Shown here in pieces: positions 6,245 through 24,177 of a stretch of DNA of 64,000 nt. Source of the DNA: an uncultured virus (IMG/VR IMGVR_UViG_3300047539_000012) (taxonomy: Duplodnaviria; Heunggongvirae; Uroviricota; Caudoviricetes). Position 1 is the first letter of the stretch; every line of letters begins with the position of its first letter. Below the pieces are notes generated by a model, which was not told the origin of the DNA, ran no database searches, and saw nothing but the letters and a program-made list of their open reading frames with translations. The stretch is taken from the IMG/VR virus record IMGVR_UViG_3300047539_000012; one strand, given 5' to 3'. The position numbers were made by a program, and so were the translations under genes.

Positions 6245-6913
6245 TCATACTCTAAACTTCCTTCCCTTGTCCTGCAATCCCGACTTCTTCAATCCAGACG
6301 ATATTACCACGCCCGCCTGCTTTTGTGCAAGGAAATTCTCAAAATCTTTTTTCAACACGGGATTCAGGTGCTGGCCCGCCATGACGTTGTCTAGCATGAT
6401 CTTCTCTTTCAGTTTGATTGCGATGATATGCTTGCAATCTGTGCGAGGCACGAACGTAGTCCACGACTTGCACGAACACTGCCAGTTCACACTCCAGCCC
6501 GTGTTCTGGCCGTCACCGGGCTTACGCTTGCCCGAGATGATGTACGGCGACTTTGCCGTGCCCTGATATGCCCACTGATCTGTCCACAGGGGCGAACTTC
6601 CCTTCGGTAGTTTGCGAATCTCGCCTTGTTTCATCGGAGCCTCCGGTACTTCCTGTGACATGTCCGGTACTTCCTGTGACGGGGGCCACACGTATGCTTT
6701 GCAGTACGACAAAATTGCTTGAGCGTTCTTGATTTTAAAGAACGTGCCCACCGTTACAATCCGTGAGAAGTGCCTGCCACACATCGTATCCGTGCCATGG
6801 AACCATCGGCGGTCGTACGCATCTGCCCCCTGAGATACAACGTAGTCCAGATACTCTTGATAACTGCCCGCGAGCACACAGATTGGATAATTTTTGTATG
6901 TCTCGTCACTCAC
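6245..6913 (-). CDS. SWIM Zn-finger protein, C-terminal GRKFRV
   Basis: WQCSCKSW...DCKHI = CxCx(n)CxH. Confidence 0.7.
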   Translation of the reverse strand: MSDETYKNYPICVLAGSYQEYLDYVVSQGADAYDRRWFHGTDTMCGRHFSRIVTVGTFFKIKNAQAILSYCKAYVWPPSQEVPDMSQEVPEAPMKQGEIRKLPKGSSPLWTDQWAYQGTAKSPYIISGKRKPGDGQNTGWSVNWQCSCKSWTTFVPRTDCKHIIAIKLKEKIMLDNVMAGQHLNPVLKKDFENFLAQKQAGVVISSGLKKSGLQDKGRKFRV

Positions 6914-7133
6914 TGCGAAACCTCCGACCGACCTTCGATCTCATTCCGTGGTCTGGTACAAGGGAACGCCTTGCCGTCAATCTATAACGGCTATAATTCG
7001 ACGACTGCGGAACCACTACCGAGAAAACTTCCCAGCCTTCAGCCGCCCACTCGTTGCACGTTTTCTCCACCCCGTCGCCAGCGGGCCCCGCATCCACCAA
7101 TCGTGAACGGAACTCGAACTCTTGTTTATTCAC
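6906..7133 (-). CDS. DUF4177-like small protein, C-terminal GRRFRSE
   Basis: CNEWAAEGWEVFSVV motif. Confidence 0.6.
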   Translation of the reverse strand: MNKQEFEFRSRLVDAGPAGDGVEKTCNEWAAEGWEVFSVVVPQSSNYSRYRLTARRSLVPDHGMRSKVGRRFRSE

Positions 7134-7698
7134 TGCGAAACCTCCTGCCGTCTGACACCTTTATCGGAGTCATCAATTGCACGGGTTTTTCCATCTTGCG
7201 CCCGCCCGCGAAAATATCTTTCTCTATATCGCCCGCGATATCGGGCCCGTGGTACTCCACAGGTCGTATCACGCCAAGGAACGACTGGTCGCCCGCTGCA
7301 GCGAACGTGTCAATCCGCAATACTCCCCAGTCTGGGCACCACCGCAGCCGCACCGTTTTCAGCGGGTCTTCGTTGACTTCGTTGGCAACCTTGAGAATCT
7401 TCGCCAGCGTAGCACCGTTGACTGTGACTGTGCAAGTCTGCTCGGACGGCGCGGGGATTAGGTTCTCCACGTTCGGCACGAGATGGTCGGGTGTAGTCTT
7501 TGCGTCGATCTCGTCACCGTTAGCCAGCCGCAGATACGGCGGCCACGTCTCGGACGGATTCGGCAGCGACACCCTGCACCAGTAGGACGGCTGTACGATA
7601 GTCGAGCCCCGCCCGCTGACGTGAAGGTGTCGCAGCCGGGGATTGTCTCTCGATAGCAACTTCTCCAGCCCGAGATTCTTTTTGTTCAGTTTGAACAT
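7126..7698 (-). CDS. hypothetical protein (possible sliding-clamp-like fold), C-terminal GRRFRSE
   Basis: VNGATLAKILK...LRID...GVIRPV pattern recalls beta-clamp C-terminal domains; GGGGAG RBS. Confidence 0.5.
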   Translation of the reverse strand: MFKLNKKNLGLEKLLSRDNPRLRHLHVSGRGSTIVQPSYWCRVSLPNPSETWPPYLRLANGDEIDAKTTPDHLVPNVENLIPAPSEQTCTVTVNGATLAKILKVANEVNEDPLKTVRLRWCPDWGVLRIDTFAAAGDQSFLGVIRPVEYHGPDIAGDIEKDIFAGGRKMEKPVQLMTPIKVSDGRRFRSE

Positions 7699-9226: not shown

Positions 9227-9949
9227 TCAGTAATTCTCTGCTTCTGTCCGAGTAAGGAAGAAGTGAATACCGCCACCGCACTCGGTCCAACGGTCTTCGT
9301 TCCATTTATCGCAACGCACGATTTTACCTACGCGATATTCTGTAGCGCTATCGTGTTGGCTTATGCCTACTTCTGTACCAAACACTTCTAGCACCTTTAC
9401 ATATTCTGCTCGGCATTTGCGTCCTGTGGCGTTGCTACGCTTGGCATTTCTGCCAATGATCACCTTTACTATTACATTGTATTTGCACTTCTTCCACCCA
9501 ACAAATTGCCCTTGTTCTGGAACAATAGACAATTCACAGGATGTAAGCACAGGTATTTCCTTAGCGCCCCTCAGGTCCGCACGCCTCAGGTTCGCGTCAC
9601 TCAGGTTCGCGTCACTCAGGTTCGCGCTACTCAGGTTCGCGCCCCTCAGGTTCGCGCCCCTCAGGTTCGCGTCACTCAGGTTCGCGCCACTCAGGTTCGC
9701 GCCACTCAGGTTCGCGTCACTCAGGTTCGCGTCACTCAGGTTCGCGCCACTCAGGTTCGCGCCACTCAGGTTCGCGCTACTCAGGTTCGCGCTACTCAGG
9801 TTCGCGCCCCTCAGGTCCGCGCCCCTCAGGTTCGCGCCCCTCAGGTCCGCGCCACCCTTAATAGCAAGCAAAACAACATCCTTAAAAGATTCAGCATCTG
9901 CCTTGAAAATGCTTTGCCCATTCCAGCGGTTTTTAATGGTGTATTCCAT
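9227..9949 (-). CDS. pentapeptide-repeat protein with DUF5758-like C-terminal domain
   Basis: about 19 A(N/D)L(S/R)x repeats; [13 protein letters not shown]...[14 protein letters not shown]. Confidence 0.9.
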
Positions 9950-10543
9950 GTTATTTTCTCCTTGTACTTATCCTTCGGGTTATAGGTATCTCCATGTAAT
10001 CAGGCTGAGCACTGACAGCCCCGCATTGACCAGGGAATCCAAGCATTCCGCAATGGGTCGCTTGGCAAAACTACGCTTGAATCTACGATAATGGTTCTTT
10101 CCAATCCAAAGTAAAGTCATGGTTTCTCCTTTGATTTCAATAGTTTACGGTGAAGCAATACGCACAGCATTGCCGACGGGCACAGTCTCGACATCGACCA
10201 TGACGAAGTTATCCGCCACGGGTTCCCACACCGCTTTAATATTTGTCACCGTGTTCTCCTCTCTAATTCAGATTCAGGCTCGCCCTGATCTGCCGTTCGT
10301 AATCGGCCAATGGTCGGTCCATCGATGATCGGTTCTGGCTCGTCGATGGTATTGGTGCCAGAGGCAAAAAAATTAGCACAGCGGTTAGCATGGCCAGTGT
10401 CGCCCACGCCACTCCGTACCACTCCAGAAACTGAATCAGAAAATGCATTGAACCCCCCACCTAATGAATTTATCACAAGAGCCCCGCCGACTGTCAATCC
10501 TAAAATTACAAAGCACCAGTCGATGAGGCAGACGATAAAATTT

Positions 10544-11880: not shown

Positions 11881-12081
11881 TCAGCGAGTAATGCACTTCG
11901 TCTTGCTCGGAACTTTGTTGTACTCCGCTTTGTTCGTGGAGTGGGTTGACTTGCCCAGCGTAGCGGCGAACGCCTCTTGCACCGCAGCGCAGCCTTTGCC
12001 TTCGTAGCCGTCAGTATCGACGGTCAGGTTGCCAGTCTCTGGGTCGATCTCGATGGTGATAATTTTATTGCAGTTACCCAC
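11881..12081 (-). CDS. DUF2997-like protein
   Basis: IEID..G.......GYEGKGC......LG.......K.EY pattern; in operon with DUF1257 and the AAA ATPase. Confidence 0.7.
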   Translation of the reverse strand: MGNCNKIITIEIDPETGNLTVDTDGYEGKGCAAVQEAFAATLGKSTHSTNKAEYNKVPSKTKCITR

Positions 12082-12363
12082 TCCAAATTATCTACCGTAC
12101 AATTCTTTTTGTCAAGGTCTTTATGGTTTACTTGAGGAAGATTTAAAGGGTTGGGAATGAACGCTCTTGCAACCAAAACATGAATCGGGGGAGCATATCC
12201 ACGCCCATTAACTGAGACATGCAGGTATCCTCTAACAACATTGGGCTTAAGAACTTTACCCACTTTTGTGGAACGATAGAATGTAAGTCGCTTAACTCGG
12301 CCCATGTTTGACACAGCGTAGTCAGGGAACTGCGGTATGGTTTTCCAGAGTTCCGTCTTGTTC
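12070..12363 (-). pseudogene. NUMOD4-HNH homing endonuclease fragment
   Basis: ELWKTIPQFPDYAVSNMGRVK (NUMOD4) and HVLVARAFIPNP.NLPQVNHKDLDK.N..V.NLEWVT (HNH); no in-frame start before NUMOD4; AT-richer than flanks. Confidence 0.75.
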
Positions 12364-12368
12364 GCTCA

Positions 12369-12779
12369 TTACGCCCCCTTCCGGTCTTGGAACTTGTACT
12401 GGATTTTCCCATTATGGAGAGTCTTGCCAAGATAGCGAAACCCTTTTTTCTTGGCAACTTTCAGTGCGCCACGTTCACCGTACGCGCACTTGAGGCCGAC
12501 TTGCCACTTCGCATTGTGCTTGCCTTGGTCGTAATCGGAAACGATCATGCTGTAAGAGCCGTTCTCGTTTCGTAGGAACCCAAGGTCATTGGCAGAGGGG
12601 CCAATGTTCTTGCGGCGTACGATGATGTGCGCTTTCTGCTGTCGCAAATCACCGTGGTAGCCGTAAAGGTTCTGTGCAATTTCGTTGACTTCGACATCGA
12701 TATACCCGACATCGTTGAGAGCCTGCACTAAGCACTCCGCATCGCGGTACTCAGTCTCGATTGTGTTGTACTTGCTCAT
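12369..12779 (-). CDS. DUF1257-like protein
   Basis: MS.Y..IET.....L..AL...G; L.GY.GD.R...AHIIVRR....SANDLGF......Y..IVSDYD. Confidence 0.75.
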   Translation of the reverse strand: MSKYNTIETEYRDAECLVQALNDVGYIDVEVNEIAQNLYGYHGDLRQQKAHIIVRRKNIGPSANDLGFLRNENGSYSMIVSDYDQGKHNAKWQVGLKCAYGERGALKVAKKKGFRYLGKTLHNGKIQYKFQDRKGA

Positions 12780-13117
12780 TTCGCCTCCAGAAAAAACTCG
12801 TTCAGAAACTGAATCTCATACTCGATTGCAACCCGCCGGTCACAAAAGGCAAGCGGCAGAATCGGGCCGCCCACTGGTTTCGTATTCACTCGCCACAGGC
12901 ACGACCATGTCCGCGTCCAGCCCGCCAGACGGCTGTCGTCTGAGACCAGCATACGGATGACCGTGAATGCCTGCCGCAGAAAGAAGTTCGCGGGCTCGAC
13001 ATGGCTCGCACGTTTCGTGGTCACCGTGCCCAGCCCCTTGAACGCTGCAGCCATCGGACTATCGAGGCAGAGTATGTCGCCTGTCTCGGTGTCCATCGTG
13101 ATCGTGATCTCGTCCAT
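12776..13117 (-). CDS. conserved hypothetical protein of the AAA/DUF1257 operon
   Basis: LG....RASHVEP...W....P.GGP.L..F..R..A...E. Confidence 0.6.
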   Translation of the reverse strand: MDEITITMDTETGDILCLDSPMAAAFKGLGTVTTKRASHVEPANFFLRQAFTVIRMLVSDDSRLAGWTRTWSCLWRVNTKPVGGPILPLAFCDRRVAIEYEIQFLNEFFLEAK

Positions 13118-13277: not shown

Positions 13278-13307
13278 ACTATACAGCACCGGAGGAGGGG
13301 CTGTCAA
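13278..13307 (-). promoter_or_regulatory. sigma70-type promoter
   Basis: TTGACA-18-TATAGT. Confidence 0.6.
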
Positions 13308-13308
13308 C

Positions 13309-14247
13309 CTAGTTCTCAGTCCTGAACTTCCGGCCTGAAGTGAGTACCAGAGCCTTCAGCATAGGCTTGACCGCTTCGAGTTCAGAAGCGACTTTCACCT
13401 TGAGGCTGTCGGACTCCCGTAGCTTGTCGATAGAAACTCCGCTCATGATCTTCTTGAGCGTTTCGACATGCTGCTGGTATTCAACGTCATCGGTCACGTT
13501 CTTGAGGCTGTACGTGTCGATGTACTCCTGCAGCCTGTCAAGTTGTCCATCGAGACGTTTACGCTTGCCCGCTTCCGGGCGCAGAACGTCGAACAACGCC
13601 TCGACCATCTTTGCACCGGCCTCGCGCATTGCAGCACGCATATCCTCGGCAGCCTGTGCGATATAACCAGCCTGCTTGCGTTCCTCACGTTCTCGGATAT
13701 TCGGGTCCGCGATGCTGATCGTGCCTGTGGTCTGGATATCCATGTATCCGTAACGGAACGTGAACCCAGAACGCACAGCCGTCGGGTGATCGTAATCTTT
13801 CCGATTGAACTGGTCACCGAGGGCCACGCGAGTCAGAGCAAAATCGCTCTCGTACTCTGCGATATACTTCGCCATGAACGCCTCGACTAGCGCGGGCCGT
13901 CGAATCGTTTCATATGCGACTAGCACACGGTCAACGATTGGGATCATGCCGTCTGCGATAATCAAGACGCCCTCTTGACCAGTGAAACGGTTTGACTTGA
14001 GTTCGACGTACCGCTTCATCTTCGCATCTTGCGAACGTATCTCTTCGAGTTCGGGCGAGTCGATCAACTTCTTGTTATGGCGTAACTGACTCGGGTCTGC
14101 GTTCGTATTGGCCGTGACGCTGATCTGTCGCAGGTTGCCAATGCCCATGTGAAAGTGGGTATAGACGAGACGTGCGCCACGCATCATCTTACTAATGTCA
14201 ATGCCGACCATTGCGGTTTTATCGAATGCTTGCGAGGGTGCTGCCAT
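13309..14247 (-). CDS. DUF3150-like helical protein, C-terminal GRKFRTEN
   Basis: KKLID...LGDQFN..DY...F; coiled-coil character; GGAG RBS. Confidence 0.6.
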   Translation of the reverse strand: MAAPSQAFDKTAMVGIDISKMMRGARLVYTHFHMGIGNLRQISVTANTNADPSQLRHNKKLIDSPELEEIRSQDAKMKRYVELKSNRFTGQEGVLIIADGMIPIVDRVLVAYETIRRPALVEAFMAKYIAEYESDFALTRVALGDQFNRKDYDHPTAVRSGFTFRYGYMDIQTTGTISIADPNIREREERKQAGYIAQAAEDMRAAMREAGAKMVEALFDVLRPEAGKRKRLDGQLDRLQEYIDTYSLKNVTDDVEYQQHVETLKKIMSGVSIDKLRESDSLKVKVASELEAVKPMLKALVLTSGRKFRTEN

Positions 14248-14323: not shown

Positions 14324-15880
14324 TTACTCCGTACGAAACTTGCGGCCCTCGACAATTTTCGTCGTGGGTTCGTGTTTGATTGGTGACGGCTCGTAGCGGT
14401 AGATGCCGCCTTTCGATGCCGACAGGAAGCGACCGGAGGCGGCACTGCGAATGCCTTCGATGACTTCGTGATGTGACTCATGGAGAGGCACGATATACTG
14501 TGACGCCTCCATGTAGGAGCACGCGAACGCCTGAGCCTTCGCAGCGCAGTTGTCGATGTCGCGGCCCGTCCAGCCTACCATTGCGGGTAGTTCAGAGTTG
14601 GCATCGAGACCATAGGCCGCCAGTTTGATTTTTACAATGCCCGCCTTTTCTTCGTCAGTGGGCATGTCGAAAAACCAAACGCCTCCGAGATTGAATCTTG
14701 AAATTAACTCGGGCGGCAGGCCGTCCAACTTGTTCGCTGTTGCTATCAGCCAGATATGACCATCGCCGATAGCGTTCAGGCAGCGGTTAGCGTTCCGCAT
14801 ATGTCTCGCGGACTTGCCAACGTGCTCATGCTCCATCGCGGAGATGTCATAGTTAAGGACCGGCTTGCCGTACTCGCCAGCGAGACAGTACGGGGACCAC
14901 GACTTGCTTGTGCCAGAGACGCCAAGGTTCAGCGTGCATGTCACATGGTTGTCGTTAATCCAGTTTAGAAACTCGCCCATCAAATTGCCTTTCGTACCAG
15001 ATGAGTCGGTTTCGTTGCCAGCGAATTGCCGCTGTATTTCATCCATGCGGACAATCACCGTCGGTTGTTTCGGGCCAGCCATTAGTCGATGACCAGCCTG
15101 TAGCCATGCATCGCAGCCGCTCATGTTCTTGAGTGTCTCGACTGTCGCGTGATACGTGAGCCCCGGGTTCTGGGTCACGATCTCCCGCTTACGCCCCCAC
15201 AGTGCATAAACGTCAAGGACGCCGGTGACACCGTCAAGGCAGAATGCAACGGCCTGATCGATAGGAAACGGCGGCAGGCCGATAGATGCGTCGGTCGCAC
15301 GTCTCAGGGTTTCGGCGTCGGGCCCCTTCTTGCAGGCAGAGAATTTTTTCTCTTGCCCAGCGTAGGCGAATGCGTTCTTTACGATGTCCTCGATCTCACT
15401 GCGGGTTGGCAGTGGAACTTCGAGTACGAGCACATCCTGTCCGATCTCGGACGGCAGGTCATCGCCCACGCCTTCGAGTAGTACCAGCATATTGCCGCTG
15501 GCCTTATAGTCATCCCGAAGGTTCGCAATGCCCTGAATGATTCGCTTGTCCTCGTCCCAAGCAAGGTGAGCGTTATGGATGAATGCCACAACGTCTGCGG
15601 AGGCCGCCGCGAGCACACCGAGAGCCACGGGCAACGAGACGGTCTCAGCCGCCTCAGTACCCGAAGGCTGCAGCATCTCAGCGATTGCAGCACAGCCCTT
15701 ATCGTTATAGCCCTTCAGGCCGTTGATGCTATCCCACGATATGAGCGGAGTCGATTCTTCTTTCGGCCCGAATGCACTGGCAATAGCCTTCACCGCCGCG
15801 AGTGCATCGTGGGTGCGGATAACAACCTGCGGCGTCGATATCATTCTCGCCGCCATGAACTGCTCAATGTATGTCTTCAC
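14324..15880 (-). CDS. Ycf46-like AAA+ ATPase with permuted Walker A/B order, C-terminal GRKFRTE
   Basis: W....GL N-terminal domain; VRMDEI (Walker B), GVSGTSKS (Walker A), IATAN..LPPEL..RF...FF.D.P, GWTGRDI. Confidence 0.85.
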   Translation of the reverse strand: MKTYIEQFMAARMISTPQVVIRTHDALAAVKAIASAFGPKEESTPLISWDSINGLKGYNDKGCAAIAEMLQPSGTEAAETVSLPVALGVLAAASADVVAFIHNAHLAWDEDKRIIQGIANLRDDYKASGNMLVLLEGVGDDLPSEIGQDVLVLEVPLPTRSEIEDIVKNAFAYAGQEKKFSACKKGPDAETLRRATDASIGLPPFPIDQAVAFCLDGVTGVLDVYALWGRKREIVTQNPGLTYHATVETLKNMSGCDAWLQAGHRLMAGPKQPTVIVRMDEIQRQFAGNETDSSGTKGNLMGEFLNWINDNHVTCTLNLGVSGTSKSWSPYCLAGEYGKPVLNYDISAMEHEHVGKSARHMRNANRCLNAIGDGHIWLIATANKLDGLPPELISRFNLGGVWFFDMPTDEEKAGIVKIKLAAYGLDANSELPAMVGWTGRDIDNCAAKAQAFACSYMEASQYIVPLHESHHEVIEGIRSAASGRFLSASKGGIYRYEPSPIKHEPTTKIVEGRKFRTE

Positions 15881-16239
15881 GATTCCCTCCGGTTGTACTT
15901 GCGAAGTAAACGGTTAGCGGTTTCGACTGCGGTACGAGCATACAGGGGGTGCCGTACTTCAGTCAAGCGTTCAGGTTCCTGTACTCGCCGCCACACGCTC
16001 ACGCGATAGCGGTCAAGAGCCCAAGTGATCTCGACACGATACTTGCCGCTGTCGGTTCTCAGGGCAACGACTTGCTGCCATTCGATGCCGTCCAGCATCC
16101 ACGTATCGAACTTTCTCAGCCGCAGATACTCGATAGAGCCCTGAGGGTCGCGGTAGCGGTCAGCGTCGTGCTTGGTTGGTGGGTTCAGGTTAGCGAACGT
16201 ACCCGGCTTGCATTCACAGTTTGGATTCGTGCAATTCAT
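15877..16239 (-). CDS. hypothetical protein
   Basis: GAGGAG RBS; coupled to the ATPase gene. Confidence 0.6.
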   Translation of the reverse strand: MNCTNPNCECKPGTFANLNPPTKHDADRYRDPQGSIEYLRLRKFDTWMLDGIEWQQVVALRTDSGKYRVEITWALDRYRVSVWRRVQEPERLTEVRHPLYARTAVETANRLLRKYNRRES

Positions 16240-18273: not shown

Positions 18274-18302
18274 ATAATACCTTATGAGGATATAACTGTC
18301 AA
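18274..18302 (-). promoter_or_regulatory. sigma70-type early promoter
   Basis: TTGACA-17-TATTAT. Confidence 0.75.
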
Positions 18303-23280: not shown

Positions 23281-23720
23281 GGTATGTTTCTCCTCATTCT
23301 CAGGCCGTCAACATGTGGCCCGTACAGACCCCGCATCACCGAGACTACCTTGTACCCGTTCTTGAGATAGAGCATCTGAGCGACGGTGTTGTCGATCATG
23401 ACGTTCAACTCAATCACCTGATGGTGGTGTCGGGCGTAGTACCCGTACATATCATCCAGCAACTGCGACCCTATCCCCCGATCCCGATAGTTCGGGCTGA
23501 CAGCAATCTGCCACAGGTAGAGCCCAACGTGTTGCCGCTCCATGATGGCGTAGGCGACCACCCTTCCGGAGCCGCCGTCCTTTGTGAAGACGTCTCCCTT
23601 ACGGAACATTCGGGCGAAGTCACCCGGCGGCGGTTGCTCAATTCCTTTGAAGCACTCTGCGCTCATCAACGCTAAAGTCTCCAGCATTGTATCCGTCTTC
23701 TCAACATCAGTTAGTTTCAC
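23277..23720 (-). CDS. GNAT acetyltransferase (RimI-like)
   Basis: IAVSPNYRDRGIGSQLL; LNV..DN..A..LY.KNGY. Confidence 0.9.
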   Translation of the reverse strand: MKLTDVEKTDTMLETLALMSAECFKGIEQPPPGDFARMFRKGDVFTKDGGSGRVVAYAIMERQHVGLYLWQIAVSPNYRDRGIGSQLLDDMYGYYARHHHQVIELNVMIDNTVAQMLYLKNGYKVVSVMRGLYGPHVDGLRMRRNIP

Positions 23721-24177
23721 GGAACCGCCTCCCGTCCTTGGGCCGCCAAGGTTTCATCTTCGGTGTCTCAAGCGGAACTTCAATCCACTTCGTCTTCGGT
23801 ATCGCGCCCTCGGGGGTTTTGTAATAAGTCTCGTATGCATTCTTGAAAGTCTCCTTGAAAATCTTGTGTGCGGGCACTGACTTCGCCTTACCAACCACCC
23901 CCTCCAGATCGGTGTTCGGGTGACTGTGCAGCCCCACGAACTTCTGCATCGCCCAGTCTACCATCTCCGCAGACTCGGGTATATGGCACGTCAACGCATG
24001 ATCGCACTTGTCACAGTATATCCGACACCGCCCGAACGGGTCAACCGCCGTTCCGTAAGTAAATTCCACCTGCAACCACGGGGCTGCTGTCTTCAGCCAC
24101 TGGCGAACGTACATCTCAATGCTAGGCGGGCTCGCTGGCACTTGGAACCTCCTCCACGAAGTACCAGACGGGGTCAT
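23707..24177 (-). CDS. hypothetical Zn-binding protein, C-terminal GRRFRETN
   Basis: CDKC..H.H. Confidence 0.55.
   Translation of the reverse strand: MTPSGTSWRRFQVPASPPSIEMYVRQWLKTAAPWLQVEFTYGTAVDPFGRCRIYCDKCDHALTCHIPESAEMVDWAMQKFVGLHSHPNTDLEGVVGKAKSVPAHKIFKETFKNAYETYYKTPEGAIPKTKWIEVPLETPKMKPWRPKDGRRFRETN

Follow-up and report, generated by a model that had tools for sequence, protein, structure and literature searches.

A phage Ycf46-like ATPase with its Walker B block ahead of its Walker A block: a candidate non-circular permutation of the AAA core

The AAA core is among the most studied protein machines, and the succession of Walker A, Walker B, and sensor 1 along its chain is treated as fixed. 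Among other P-loop NTPases, the circularly permuted GTPases of the YlqF/YjeQ type carry their motifs in a nonstandard chain order while keeping the fold. Here, an ATPase gene is analyzed that lies in a 64,000-nucleotide (nt) stretch of DNA from an uncultured virus of the Caudoviricetes (IMG/VR record IMGVR_UViG_3300047539_000012; this whole stretch is called the window below) and whose 518-amino-acid (aa) product presents Walker B before Walker A. Whereas the permutation of the GTPases is circular, the ATPase has an internal block transposed, with both termini in place. A literature search, with subscription journals outside its reach, turned up no description of a permuted AAA core.

The closest comparison is with Ycf46-like ATPases that keep the normal motif order, including gp96 of Mycobacterium phage Corndog (P0271), gp71 of Pseudomonas phage PA_L9 (P0272), the IMG/VR protein P0273, and cyanobacterial proteins annotated “AAA family ATPase.” These normal-order relatives, whose source label is “SpoVK/Ycf46/Vps4 family AAA+-type ATPase,” resemble the ATPase in length (~500 to 570 aa), in a homologous degenerate N-terminal domain, in the lid, and in the signatures GxxGxGKS...vGeSE, DEIEK..DSGT..LTWMq, and ATAN..LPPEL..RF, but the first two of these blocks stand in the reverse order to that of the swapped clade. 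The type II AAA unfoldases (p97/Cdc48, Rix7/NVL, and Drg1/AFG2) likewise consist of two stacked AAA-like domains; in the ATPase, however, the first domain lacks a P-loop, the identity is only 12 to 15%, and the connectivity of the second domain (D2) is permuted.

The open reading frame (ORF) of the ATPase initiates with GTG at 15880 and ends with a stop codon at 14324-14326. Its parts, each with the evidence behind it (HMM, hidden Markov model), are as follows.

14324..15880, minus strand: ATPase gene, 518-aa tandem AAA-like (Ycf46-like) protein with a swapped D2 core (ORF call, homologues)
15161..15880, minus strand: residues 1 to 240, degenerate AAA-like (D1-like) N-terminal domain without a P-loop (structure match, hhalign)
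15065..15160, minus strand: residues 241 to 272, linker and helix alpha0 (residues 257 to 268), with GPKQ at the end (AlphaFold, hhalign)
14942..15064, minus strand: residues 273 to 313, transposed block with Walker B (block HMMs, AlphaFold, invariant residues)
14759..14941, minus strand: residues 314 to 374, Walker A block (Pfam AAA, PDB profile search, invariant residues)
14327..14758, minus strand: residues 375 to 518, sensor 1 to C-terminal tail (alignments, AlphaFold, block HMM)
14327..14347, minus strand: residues 512 to 518, C-terminal tail GRKFRTE (R513 and R516 invariant in the family)

The transposed block, PTVIVRMDEIQRQFAGNETDSSGTKGNLMGEFLNWINDNHV (residues 273 to 313), comprises the Walker B strand (275 to 279) followed by D280 and E281, a short helix, the DSSGT loop, and a helix at 297 to 311; the loop (288 to 296) occupies the pore-loop-2 position and is modeled at low confidence. 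The Walker A block that follows, TCTLNLGVSGTSKS...HVGKS...LNAIGDG, includes strand beta1 (314 to 320), the P-loop GVSGTSKS (320 to 327) with residues G320, G323, K326, and S327, helix alpha1, strand beta2 (341 to 344), HVG in the pore-loop-1 position (353 to 355), and helix alpha2 (356 to 372). From residue 375 onward, HIWLIATANKLDGLPPELISRF supplies the sensor-1 residue N383 and the Arg finger R395, within a segment made up of the sensor-1 strand (376 to 382), LPPEL..SRF, strand beta5 (400 to 404), a helical lid, and the tail. The order Walker B, Walker A, sensor 1/Arg finger, which an earlier examination of the DNA letters without database searches (the sequence-only reading) had described, is exact, residue by residue. 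All breakpoints are located in loops, namely, after GPKQ, after NDNHV, and after AIGDG; GPKQ, at the end of the linker, corresponds to the point at which strand beta1 is entered in the normal-order proteins.

To locate the blocks in the relatives, an alignment of 28 family sequences that are 51 to 71% identical to the ATPase (A1) was cut into blocks, and one HMM was built per block and run on normal-order proteins. Within the transposed block, D280, E281, G288, L305, and W307 are invariant in A1, as is G355 of HVG. Of the relatives, P0271 and P0272 came from a tblastn search of a phage collection, and the protein of L010, which is identical to P0273, was taken from a scan of viral contigs. On all three, the block HMMs match in the order Walker A, Walker B, sensor, with abutting coordinates: 313 to 366, 368 to 406, and 412 onward in P0272; 317 to 372, 374 to 412, and 417 onward in P0271; and 265 to 311, 322 to 360, and 364 onward in the L010 protein. 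The Walker B block scores 21.0 to 27.0 bits and the Walker A block 10.2 to 31.0 bits, compared with maxima of 6.1 and 7.1 bits, respectively, in 1,000 shuffles of each target.

These matches bear on the possibility that nothing was transposed, that is, that the upstream strand with its DE pair arose independently, by convergence or from an unrelated insertion, with deletion of the original Walker B block. Formally, such a history can be written as a colinear alignment with two indels. Nevertheless, the upstream block matches the normal-order Walker B block over 37 profile positions that take in DEIEK, DSsGt, and LtWm, its score of 21 to 27 bits versus at most 6.1 bits in the shuffles argues against a composition artifact, and it has the identical anatomy (strand, short helix, disordered loop, and long helix) and the length of the missing piece. 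An independent origin of the strand is accordingly regarded as highly improbable.

Profile comparisons place the blocks in the same way. Aligned by hhalign with 32 normal-order proteins (A2), A1 gives a probability of 100 and an E value of 5.9e-39 over 422 aligned columns, including those of the N-terminal domain, in which residues 18 to 254 align to the N-domain of the normal-order relatives. The colinear path through this alignment requires two reciprocal gaps of ~42 residues in different places, each of which corresponds to the DEIEK..DSGT..LTWM block; a straightforward colinear alignment to canonical AAA domains, the result that would have undone the idea of a swap, was not obtained. Whereas P0271 and P0272 match the Pfam AAA profile (PF00004) end to end (positions 2 to 130 of 131; E values of 5e-24 and 7e-27), the ATPase matches it at positions 4 to 48 only, through residues 319 to 363 (E = 2e-4); its whole-protein score is 22.2 bits against a cutoff of 21.2, and no single stretch passes alone. 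The two Pfam matches in swapped order that the sequence-only reading had anticipated were not found; the partial match is the single one obtained. In a profile search of PDB chains, residues 318 to 373 align to the region from Walker A through vGESE of p97-like chains and residues 368 to 452 to the sensor-1 and lid region, so that the Walker B segment of the chains is passed over; the region of N383 and R395 aligns to the sensor-1/second region of homology (SRH) of p97-like and proteasomal chains. A single-sequence search of the PDB chains gave a chance match only (E = 0.6).

Together, the comparisons confirm that the Walker B block is placed ahead of the Walker A block instead of between the Walker A block and the sensor-1 strand. 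As judged from sequence homology, the ATPase is a member of the AAA superfamily, but one that departs from AAA colinearity, because the Pfam profile match is partial and both the block HMMs and hhalign place Walker B first. Members with the swapped order are left unnamed or are undercalled, since profile methods see only a third of the domain (Pfam E = 2e-4).

The swapped order is common. A search of 5.8 billion clustered proteins yielded no fewer than 190 homologues of ~518 aa, all unnamed, and a profile search run exhaustively on 1.84 billion cluster representatives yielded 6,789 matches at E ≤ 1e-3 and 1,218 at E ≤ 1e-30; each of the best 150 of the 6,789 matches aligns in one colinear stretch. 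The swapped phage clade amounts to hundreds of clusters at 50% identity. At E ≤ 1e-2, the swapped order was found in 269 of 271 family proteins, with the ATPase itself and gp103 of Tunturiibacter phage Tunturi_3 counted in; in one of the remaining two, the Walker B block has diverged beyond the reach of the HMM, and the other is a truncated entry. When the threshold is tightened to E ≤ 1e-3, four proteins lose their Walker B block, and by eye a DE-bearing strand precedes the P-loop in all four. Conversely, the normal order was found in all 122 of the normal-order relatives (120/120 relatives of P0273, together with P0271 and P0272). In the phage collection, Tunturi_3, a cultured soil phage whose gp103 is 36% identical to the ATPase, is the sole swapped relative, and the remaining matches are normal-order proteins or chance; a search for related loci from P0272 returned only its own record.

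For phylogenetic analysis, the N-terminal domain and the three blocks were aligned jointly and concatenated into 475 columns for 153 swapped and 120 normal-order proteins. Left aside were 115 of 120 close relatives in the swapped set, for redundancy, along with proteins outside 470 to 600 aa, and two normal-order proteins, for length. In the resulting FastTree phylogeny of 273 rows, the swapped proteins occupy one side of a branch with support of 100, and a single change of order is needed; the normal-order rows closest to the swapped side are P0339 and Corndog gp96. The normal order throughout the wider AAA superfamily, as seen in the PDB chains and the Pfam profile, suggests that the direction of change was from normal to swapped.

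An assembly or chimera artifact of the contig was also considered and was rejected, its probability being negligible: the swapped order recurs in the 269 of 271 family proteins and in the cultured phage Tunturi_3, and contigs of three DNA runs (X2, X5, and X9) span all three block junctions (nt 14758, 14941, and 15064) without joints or indels, which excludes the misassembly that could have refuted the earlier claim. Coverage of the gene by contigs of an RNA library (X15) is partial; the gaps are uninformative, and the RNA library may hold DNA too. The claim of an internal segment swap with a rewired AAA topology is therefore upheld by the tiling of block HMMs, the reciprocal hhalign gaps, the conservation of the order in the family, and independent assemblies.

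DNA of the gene was detected, at half or more of the sampled words, in 15 public runs, nearly all of them peat or permafrost metagenomes. The RNA library X15 is a peat metatranscriptome, and the sole cultured relative, Tunturi_3, infects a tundra-soil acidobacterium. The occurrence in peat and permafrost and the host of Tunturi_3 hint that the phage carrying the ATPase infects a soil acidobacterium.

The AlphaFold model of the ATPase, built from a 28-row alignment (predicted local distance difference test [pLDDT] of 85.4), contains the usual elements in the new order, in agreement with the order read from the letters. Upstream of the P-loop strand, these are helix 257-268, strand 275-279, helix 282-287, the low-confidence loop 288-296 (pLDDT < 50), and helix 297-311; from the P-loop strand onward, they are strand 314-320, helix 329-336, strand 341-344, helix 356-372, strand 376-382, helix 390-394, and strand 400-404. 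The model of P0273 (pLDDT of 89.9) has an identical set of elements in the normal placement, with the unit of strand, short helix, low-confidence loop, and long helix (304 to 341) sitting between helix 284-301 and strand 346-352.

With the whole model as the query, the top Foldseek matches in the PDB are the two-domain (type II) AAA proteins Rix7, p97, NVL, and Drg1 (E of ~1e-11). The swapped and normal-order models were further compared with the same solved chains by VIA-align, a sequence-order aligner (rmsd, root mean square deviation).

p97 7lmz_C (D1 and D2): swapped model, Z 17.5 with 399 residues aligned (rmsd 4.1); normal-order model, Z 27.6 with 464
spastin 6p07_B: swapped model, Z 15.8 with 211 residues aligned; normal-order model, Z 23.6 with 271
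Vps4 6oo2_C: swapped model, Z 15.7 with 210 residues aligned; normal-order model, Z 24.4 with 273
p97 D2 3cf0_A: swapped model, Z 15.3 with 203 residues aligned; normal-order model, Z 23.8 with 264

The D2 domain of the ATPase alone thus resembles spastin and Vps4 (Z 15.8 and 15.7), and its permutation costs ~8 Z units relative to the model of the normal-order relative on the same chains. On each of the four chains, the swapped model aligns 60 to 65 fewer residues than the normal-order model, a loss that is expected if the ~41-residue block is unplaceable in sequence order and to which general divergence also contributes.

Residue couplings provide a view of the packing that does not depend on structure prediction. 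Mean-field couplings were computed from swapped-family sequences alone (266 sequences; effective number of sequences [Neff] of 188), and the pairs given here are from the top 60; most of them recur with a second alignment, and I282-A380 is from the inter-block list of that second run. The Walker B strand and its end are coupled to the sensor-1 strand (V277-L378 and I282-A380). Where that strand begins, it is coupled to the end of alpha2 (V275-G372), which is the ancestral junction of the normal order, and where it ends, to the residue immediately past the P-loop (R278-P330). Five coupled pairs connect helix 297-311 with helix 356-372, the loops in the two pore-loop positions (288 to 299 and 345 to 355) are coupled through K297/N299-E350 and S294-V354, and N318-F404 couples the P-loop strand to strand 400-404. 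In ASCE (additional strand, catalytic glutamate) ATPases, the strands of the sheet are ordered 5-1-4-3-2. The couplings V277-L378, N318-F404, and V275-G372, the order of the secondary structure elements, and the structure matches at Z 15 to 16 fit such a 5-1-4-3-2 core.

The same contacts would be expected if the swap were real but the block acted in trans, packing into the neighboring subunit of a ring by three-dimensional domain swapping so that each active site is formed by two chains, given that covariation is blind to the difference between intrachain and interchain contacts. The linkers flanking the block are short loops, and the DSSGT loop is modeled with a pLDDT below 50 at residues 288 to 296, both of which would suit this arrangement. 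However, the monomer model puts strand 275-279 in a sheet with high confidence, at mean pLDDT values of 91 for residues 271 to 280 and 87 for residues 301 to 310, and the V275-G372 coupling fits an in cis replacement of the former covalent junction. Packing in trans is therefore judged unlikely.

The most probable explanation, to which a probability of roughly 85% is assigned, is that the protein is a Ycf46-like AAA ATPase that combines a degenerate D1-like domain with a catalytic module in which a block of ~41 residues has been moved, yielding a non-circular permutation with the sheet and the active site kept. Moved together would be the Walker B strand (beta3), the loop in the pore-loop-2 position, and helix alpha3, from an ancestral place between alpha2 and the sensor-1 strand (beta4) to the present one between alpha0 and beta1. 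The resulting chain order would be alpha0-beta3-alpha3-beta1-alpha1-beta2-alpha2-beta4-alpha4-beta5. Three connections would be new: alpha0 would enter beta3 and not beta1 two strands away, alpha3 would end at beta1 and not at the neighboring beta4, and alpha2 would end at beta4 and not at the neighboring beta3. Reasoning from the textbook sheet, these connections would span one or two strand positions with right-handed crossovers. Because the crossover directions would be kept, the helices would stay on their faces of the sheet, and hence the sheet and the active site can persist.

The usual genetic route to such a rearrangement is an internal tandem duplication of both blocks followed by loss of the outer copies. 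An origin of the swap by internal duplication and subsequent deletions is nonetheless a conjecture in this case, since no duplicated form occurs among the 393 proteins examined. Duplication intermediates may exist beyond the best 150 of the 6,789 profile matches.

The residues that would carry out catalysis are retained. G320, G323, K326, S327, D280, E281, N383, and R395 are all invariant in A1; GVSGTSKS conforms to the Walker A pattern GxxxxGK[ST], and VIVRMDE, with its strand at residues 275 to 279, to a Walker B motif of the form hhhhDE on a strand. Of 268 family proteins, 258 have DE as their acidic pair. The P-loop GTSKS, which the sequence-only reading had flagged as atypical, is real but is a trait of the subclade and not of the whole family: in the same 268 proteins, a redundant sample, the residue before the P-loop Lys is Ser in 128, Gly in 96, Ala in 35, and another residue in 8, with 1 unmatched, and the consensus in the wider swapped family is the ordinary GpPGsGKS. 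From the conservation of catalytic residues and the similarity of the fold, the protein is predicted to be a ring-forming, ATP-driven unfoldase or remodeler. We infer from the sequences that the ATPase is active but mechanically modified.

Several observations weigh against this account of a permuted but functional ATPase. In the subclade of the ATPase, Ser replaces Gly before the P-loop Lys, His stands at the aromatic position of pore loop 1 (HVG versus Y/W-V-G), and one SRH arginine is left of the classic AAA two (SRF versus RKGRFD); the normal-order relatives keep RKGRFD and Y/W-V-G, whereas the swapped clade has SRF and mostly H/L-V-G. The position of D280/E281 beside K326/S327 is suggested indirectly, by homology, the R278-P330 coupling, and the order of the modeled secondary structure elements. 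In the normal-order set, with a Neff of 63 that leaves the comparison underpowered, the top 40 inter-block couplings share 3 exact pairs with those of the swapped set versus ~0.3 expected, and in the same comparison the tolerant overlap is 4, whereas random draws average 2.3 and reach at most 7, with a Spearman coefficient of 0.03; this weak excess over random is given no weight here. The ATPase has no match in NCBIfam or PADLOC. No protein among the 393 was found to have its Walker A or its Walker B block in duplicate; three second block matches of 2.3 to 3.9 bits are noise. Finally, the two groups of proteins came from separately seeded searches, such that lineages between them may be unsampled; for this reason, and because FastTree readily joins long branches, a single origin of the swap is read as not contradicted rather than as proven.

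The first of these points raise the possibility of a pseudo-ATPase, in which the rearrangement broke catalysis and the protein was kept as a scaffold or nucleotide sensor. Such a loss would be in keeping with the Ser in place of the P-loop Gly, the His in place of the pore-loop aromatic, and the single SRH arginine of the subclade, and the N-terminal domain is already a degenerate AAA-like domain. On the other hand, K326, S327, D280, E281, N383, and R395 do not vary across the 28 sequences, and both the DE pair in 258/268 proteins and the canonical P-loop of the wider family speak for retained function. Conservation of the full catalytic set is hard to explain without hydrolysis, and a pseudo-ATPase is thus disfavored as quite improbable.

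Provided that the permuted ATPase is functional, the clade would show that the ASCE sheet tolerates a non-circular rewiring with all catalytic residues kept. In a broader interpretation, held at somewhat better than even odds, the clade represents an ancient natural non-circular permutation of the AAA/ASCE core in which the sheet, the active site, and remodeling survive while the nucleotide site and the pore loops are linked by a changed covalent path, and the C-terminal tails shared with other proteins may dock on one hub. The clade would offer a case of such a permutation from nature that can be compared directly with normal-order sisters belonging to the same gene module; swapped and normal forms could serve as a test of whether force is coupled through chain connectivity or through packing.

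The window also encodes a DNA polymerase, a primase, a large terminase, a head-tail adaptor, a major head protein, and an integrase-like fragment. The genes around the ATPase and the ORFs that share its tail are the following.

15877..16239, minus strand: 120-aa ORF upstream of the ATPase gene, its TGA stop overlapping the GTG start of the ATPase as GTGA
13309..14247, minus strand: 312-aa protein, a DUF3150-like lead, ending in SGRKFRTEN (tblastn, ESM-Atlas look-alikes)
12776..13117, minus strand: 113-aa protein (“RASHVEP”) of no known family, a conserved module member (Pfam, tblastn)
12369..12779, minus strand: DUF1257 (Ycf35-like) protein, 136 aa (Pfam PF06868, E = 5.3e-9; conserved in loci L005 to L009)
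12024..12314, minus strand: HNH homing endonuclease, 96 aa (PADLOC HEase, E = 2.2e-10; Pfam HNH_3, E = 3.5e-6)
11881..12081, minus strand: DUF2997 protein, 66 aa (Pfam PF11211, E = 4.1e-6; conserved in L005 to L009 and in Tunturi_3)
6245-6940, 6906-7160, 7126-7698, 13309-14247, 14324-15880, and 23707-24177, minus strand: tail-bearing ORFs (motif scan)

The ATPase gene lies inside a long minus-strand array and, contrary to what had been proposed, is probably not the head of an operon; that position is doubtful because its GTG start overlaps the TGA of the upstream same-strand ORF. A GGAGGG lies a few bases upstream of the GTG, and a homologue of the 120-aa ORF is also found upstream in the related locus L004. 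With respect to the downstream neighbors, the DUF1257 and DUF2997 assignments made from the letters alone are borne out by Pfam, but the DUF3150-like label of the 312-aa protein has no Pfam match behind it (none at E ≤ 1) and comes from ESM-Atlas look-alikes only: PF11348 (DUF3150) is found in 11 to 18% of the members of the look-alike clusters. In tblastn searches, the 312-aa protein has counterparts with 38 to 45% identity in L005 to L009 and 27% identity in Tunturi_3.

The ATPase, the 312-aa protein, the 113-aa protein, DUF1257, and DUF2997 occur together in all five related loci with downstream DNA (L005 to L009), one of which (L006) is rearranged, with the 312-aa gene upstream of the ATPase; the set is also present in Tunturi_3. 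The HNH gene (HNH_3/NUMOD4 type) is inserted between DUF1257 and DUF2997, overlapping the annotated start of DUF2997 by 58 nt; it has no tblastn match in L004 to L009 and is outside the module in the related loci. In PA_L9, a 319-aa protein, DUF1257, and DUF2997 come after the normal-order ATPase, and the module thus predates the swap. In Corndog, neither DUF1257 nor DUF2997 was found among gp95 to gp91 at E ≤ 0.01. None of the five module proteins has a PADLOC match, and a role in a known defense system is unsupported. These findings draw attention to the ATPase/DUF1257/DUF2997 module, which is widespread in phages and bacteria.

Structure prediction for the complex of DUF1257 and DUF2997 gave a score of 0.81, compared with 0.00 for the best control; of 157 solved complexes, 116 attain this mark, as do 2 of 215 mismatched pairs, although with 6-row alignments the counts are rough. 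Between the prediction runs, at least 97% of contacts agree, and the partner has a pLDDT of at least 66. DUF1257 and DUF2997 are thus predicted to form a heterodimer by strand pairing, with the C-terminal strand of DUF1257 (125 to 131) pairing with the N-terminal strand of DUF2997 (7 to 12). In cyanobacteria, DUF2997 and DUF1257 (ycf35) are neighbors beside fed7 (PMC4284462). The pairing may extend to these cyanobacterial neighbors. The putative remodeler would work within the conserved five-gene phage module, on or through the predicted DUF1257-DUF2997 pair, which would be its likeliest adaptor or client.

The tail of the ATPase recurs in the window. The motif G-R-[KR]-F-R followed by 0 to 3 residues ends six minus-strand ORFs (for example, as GRKFRTE, GRKFRTEN, GRRFRSE, or GRRFRETN); across all six frames of the window, the motif occurs 18 times, 6 of them in these ORFs. 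In the related phage loci, the tail is always present on the ATPase and the 312-aa protein, with further ORFs bearing it in L006 and L007; the normal-order phages L002, L003/L011, and L010 lack it. HbYX tails dock proteasomal ATPases, and by comparison the shared G-R-[KR]-x-R tail may be a common docking peptide.

Sigma-70-like sites with 11 of 12 consensus matches (TTGACA, a spacing of 17 to 18 nt, and TATAGT, GATAAT, or TATTAT) are present on the minus strand at 13278-13307, 12087-12115, and 18274-18302, that is, at the 3′ end of the 312-aa gene with the −10 element just past its stop, just upstream of DUF2997, and upstream of the array, respectively. These are consensus matches only, and promoter and terminator matches played no part in defining the operon. 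Finally, positions 9564-9855 hold a tandem array of a 15-nt unit, GCGCCACTCAGGTTC, in 19.5 copies with 91% matches, which reads as peptide repeats in one frame of a doubtful plus-strand ORF (9363-10091) and could be a set of iterons or another binding array.

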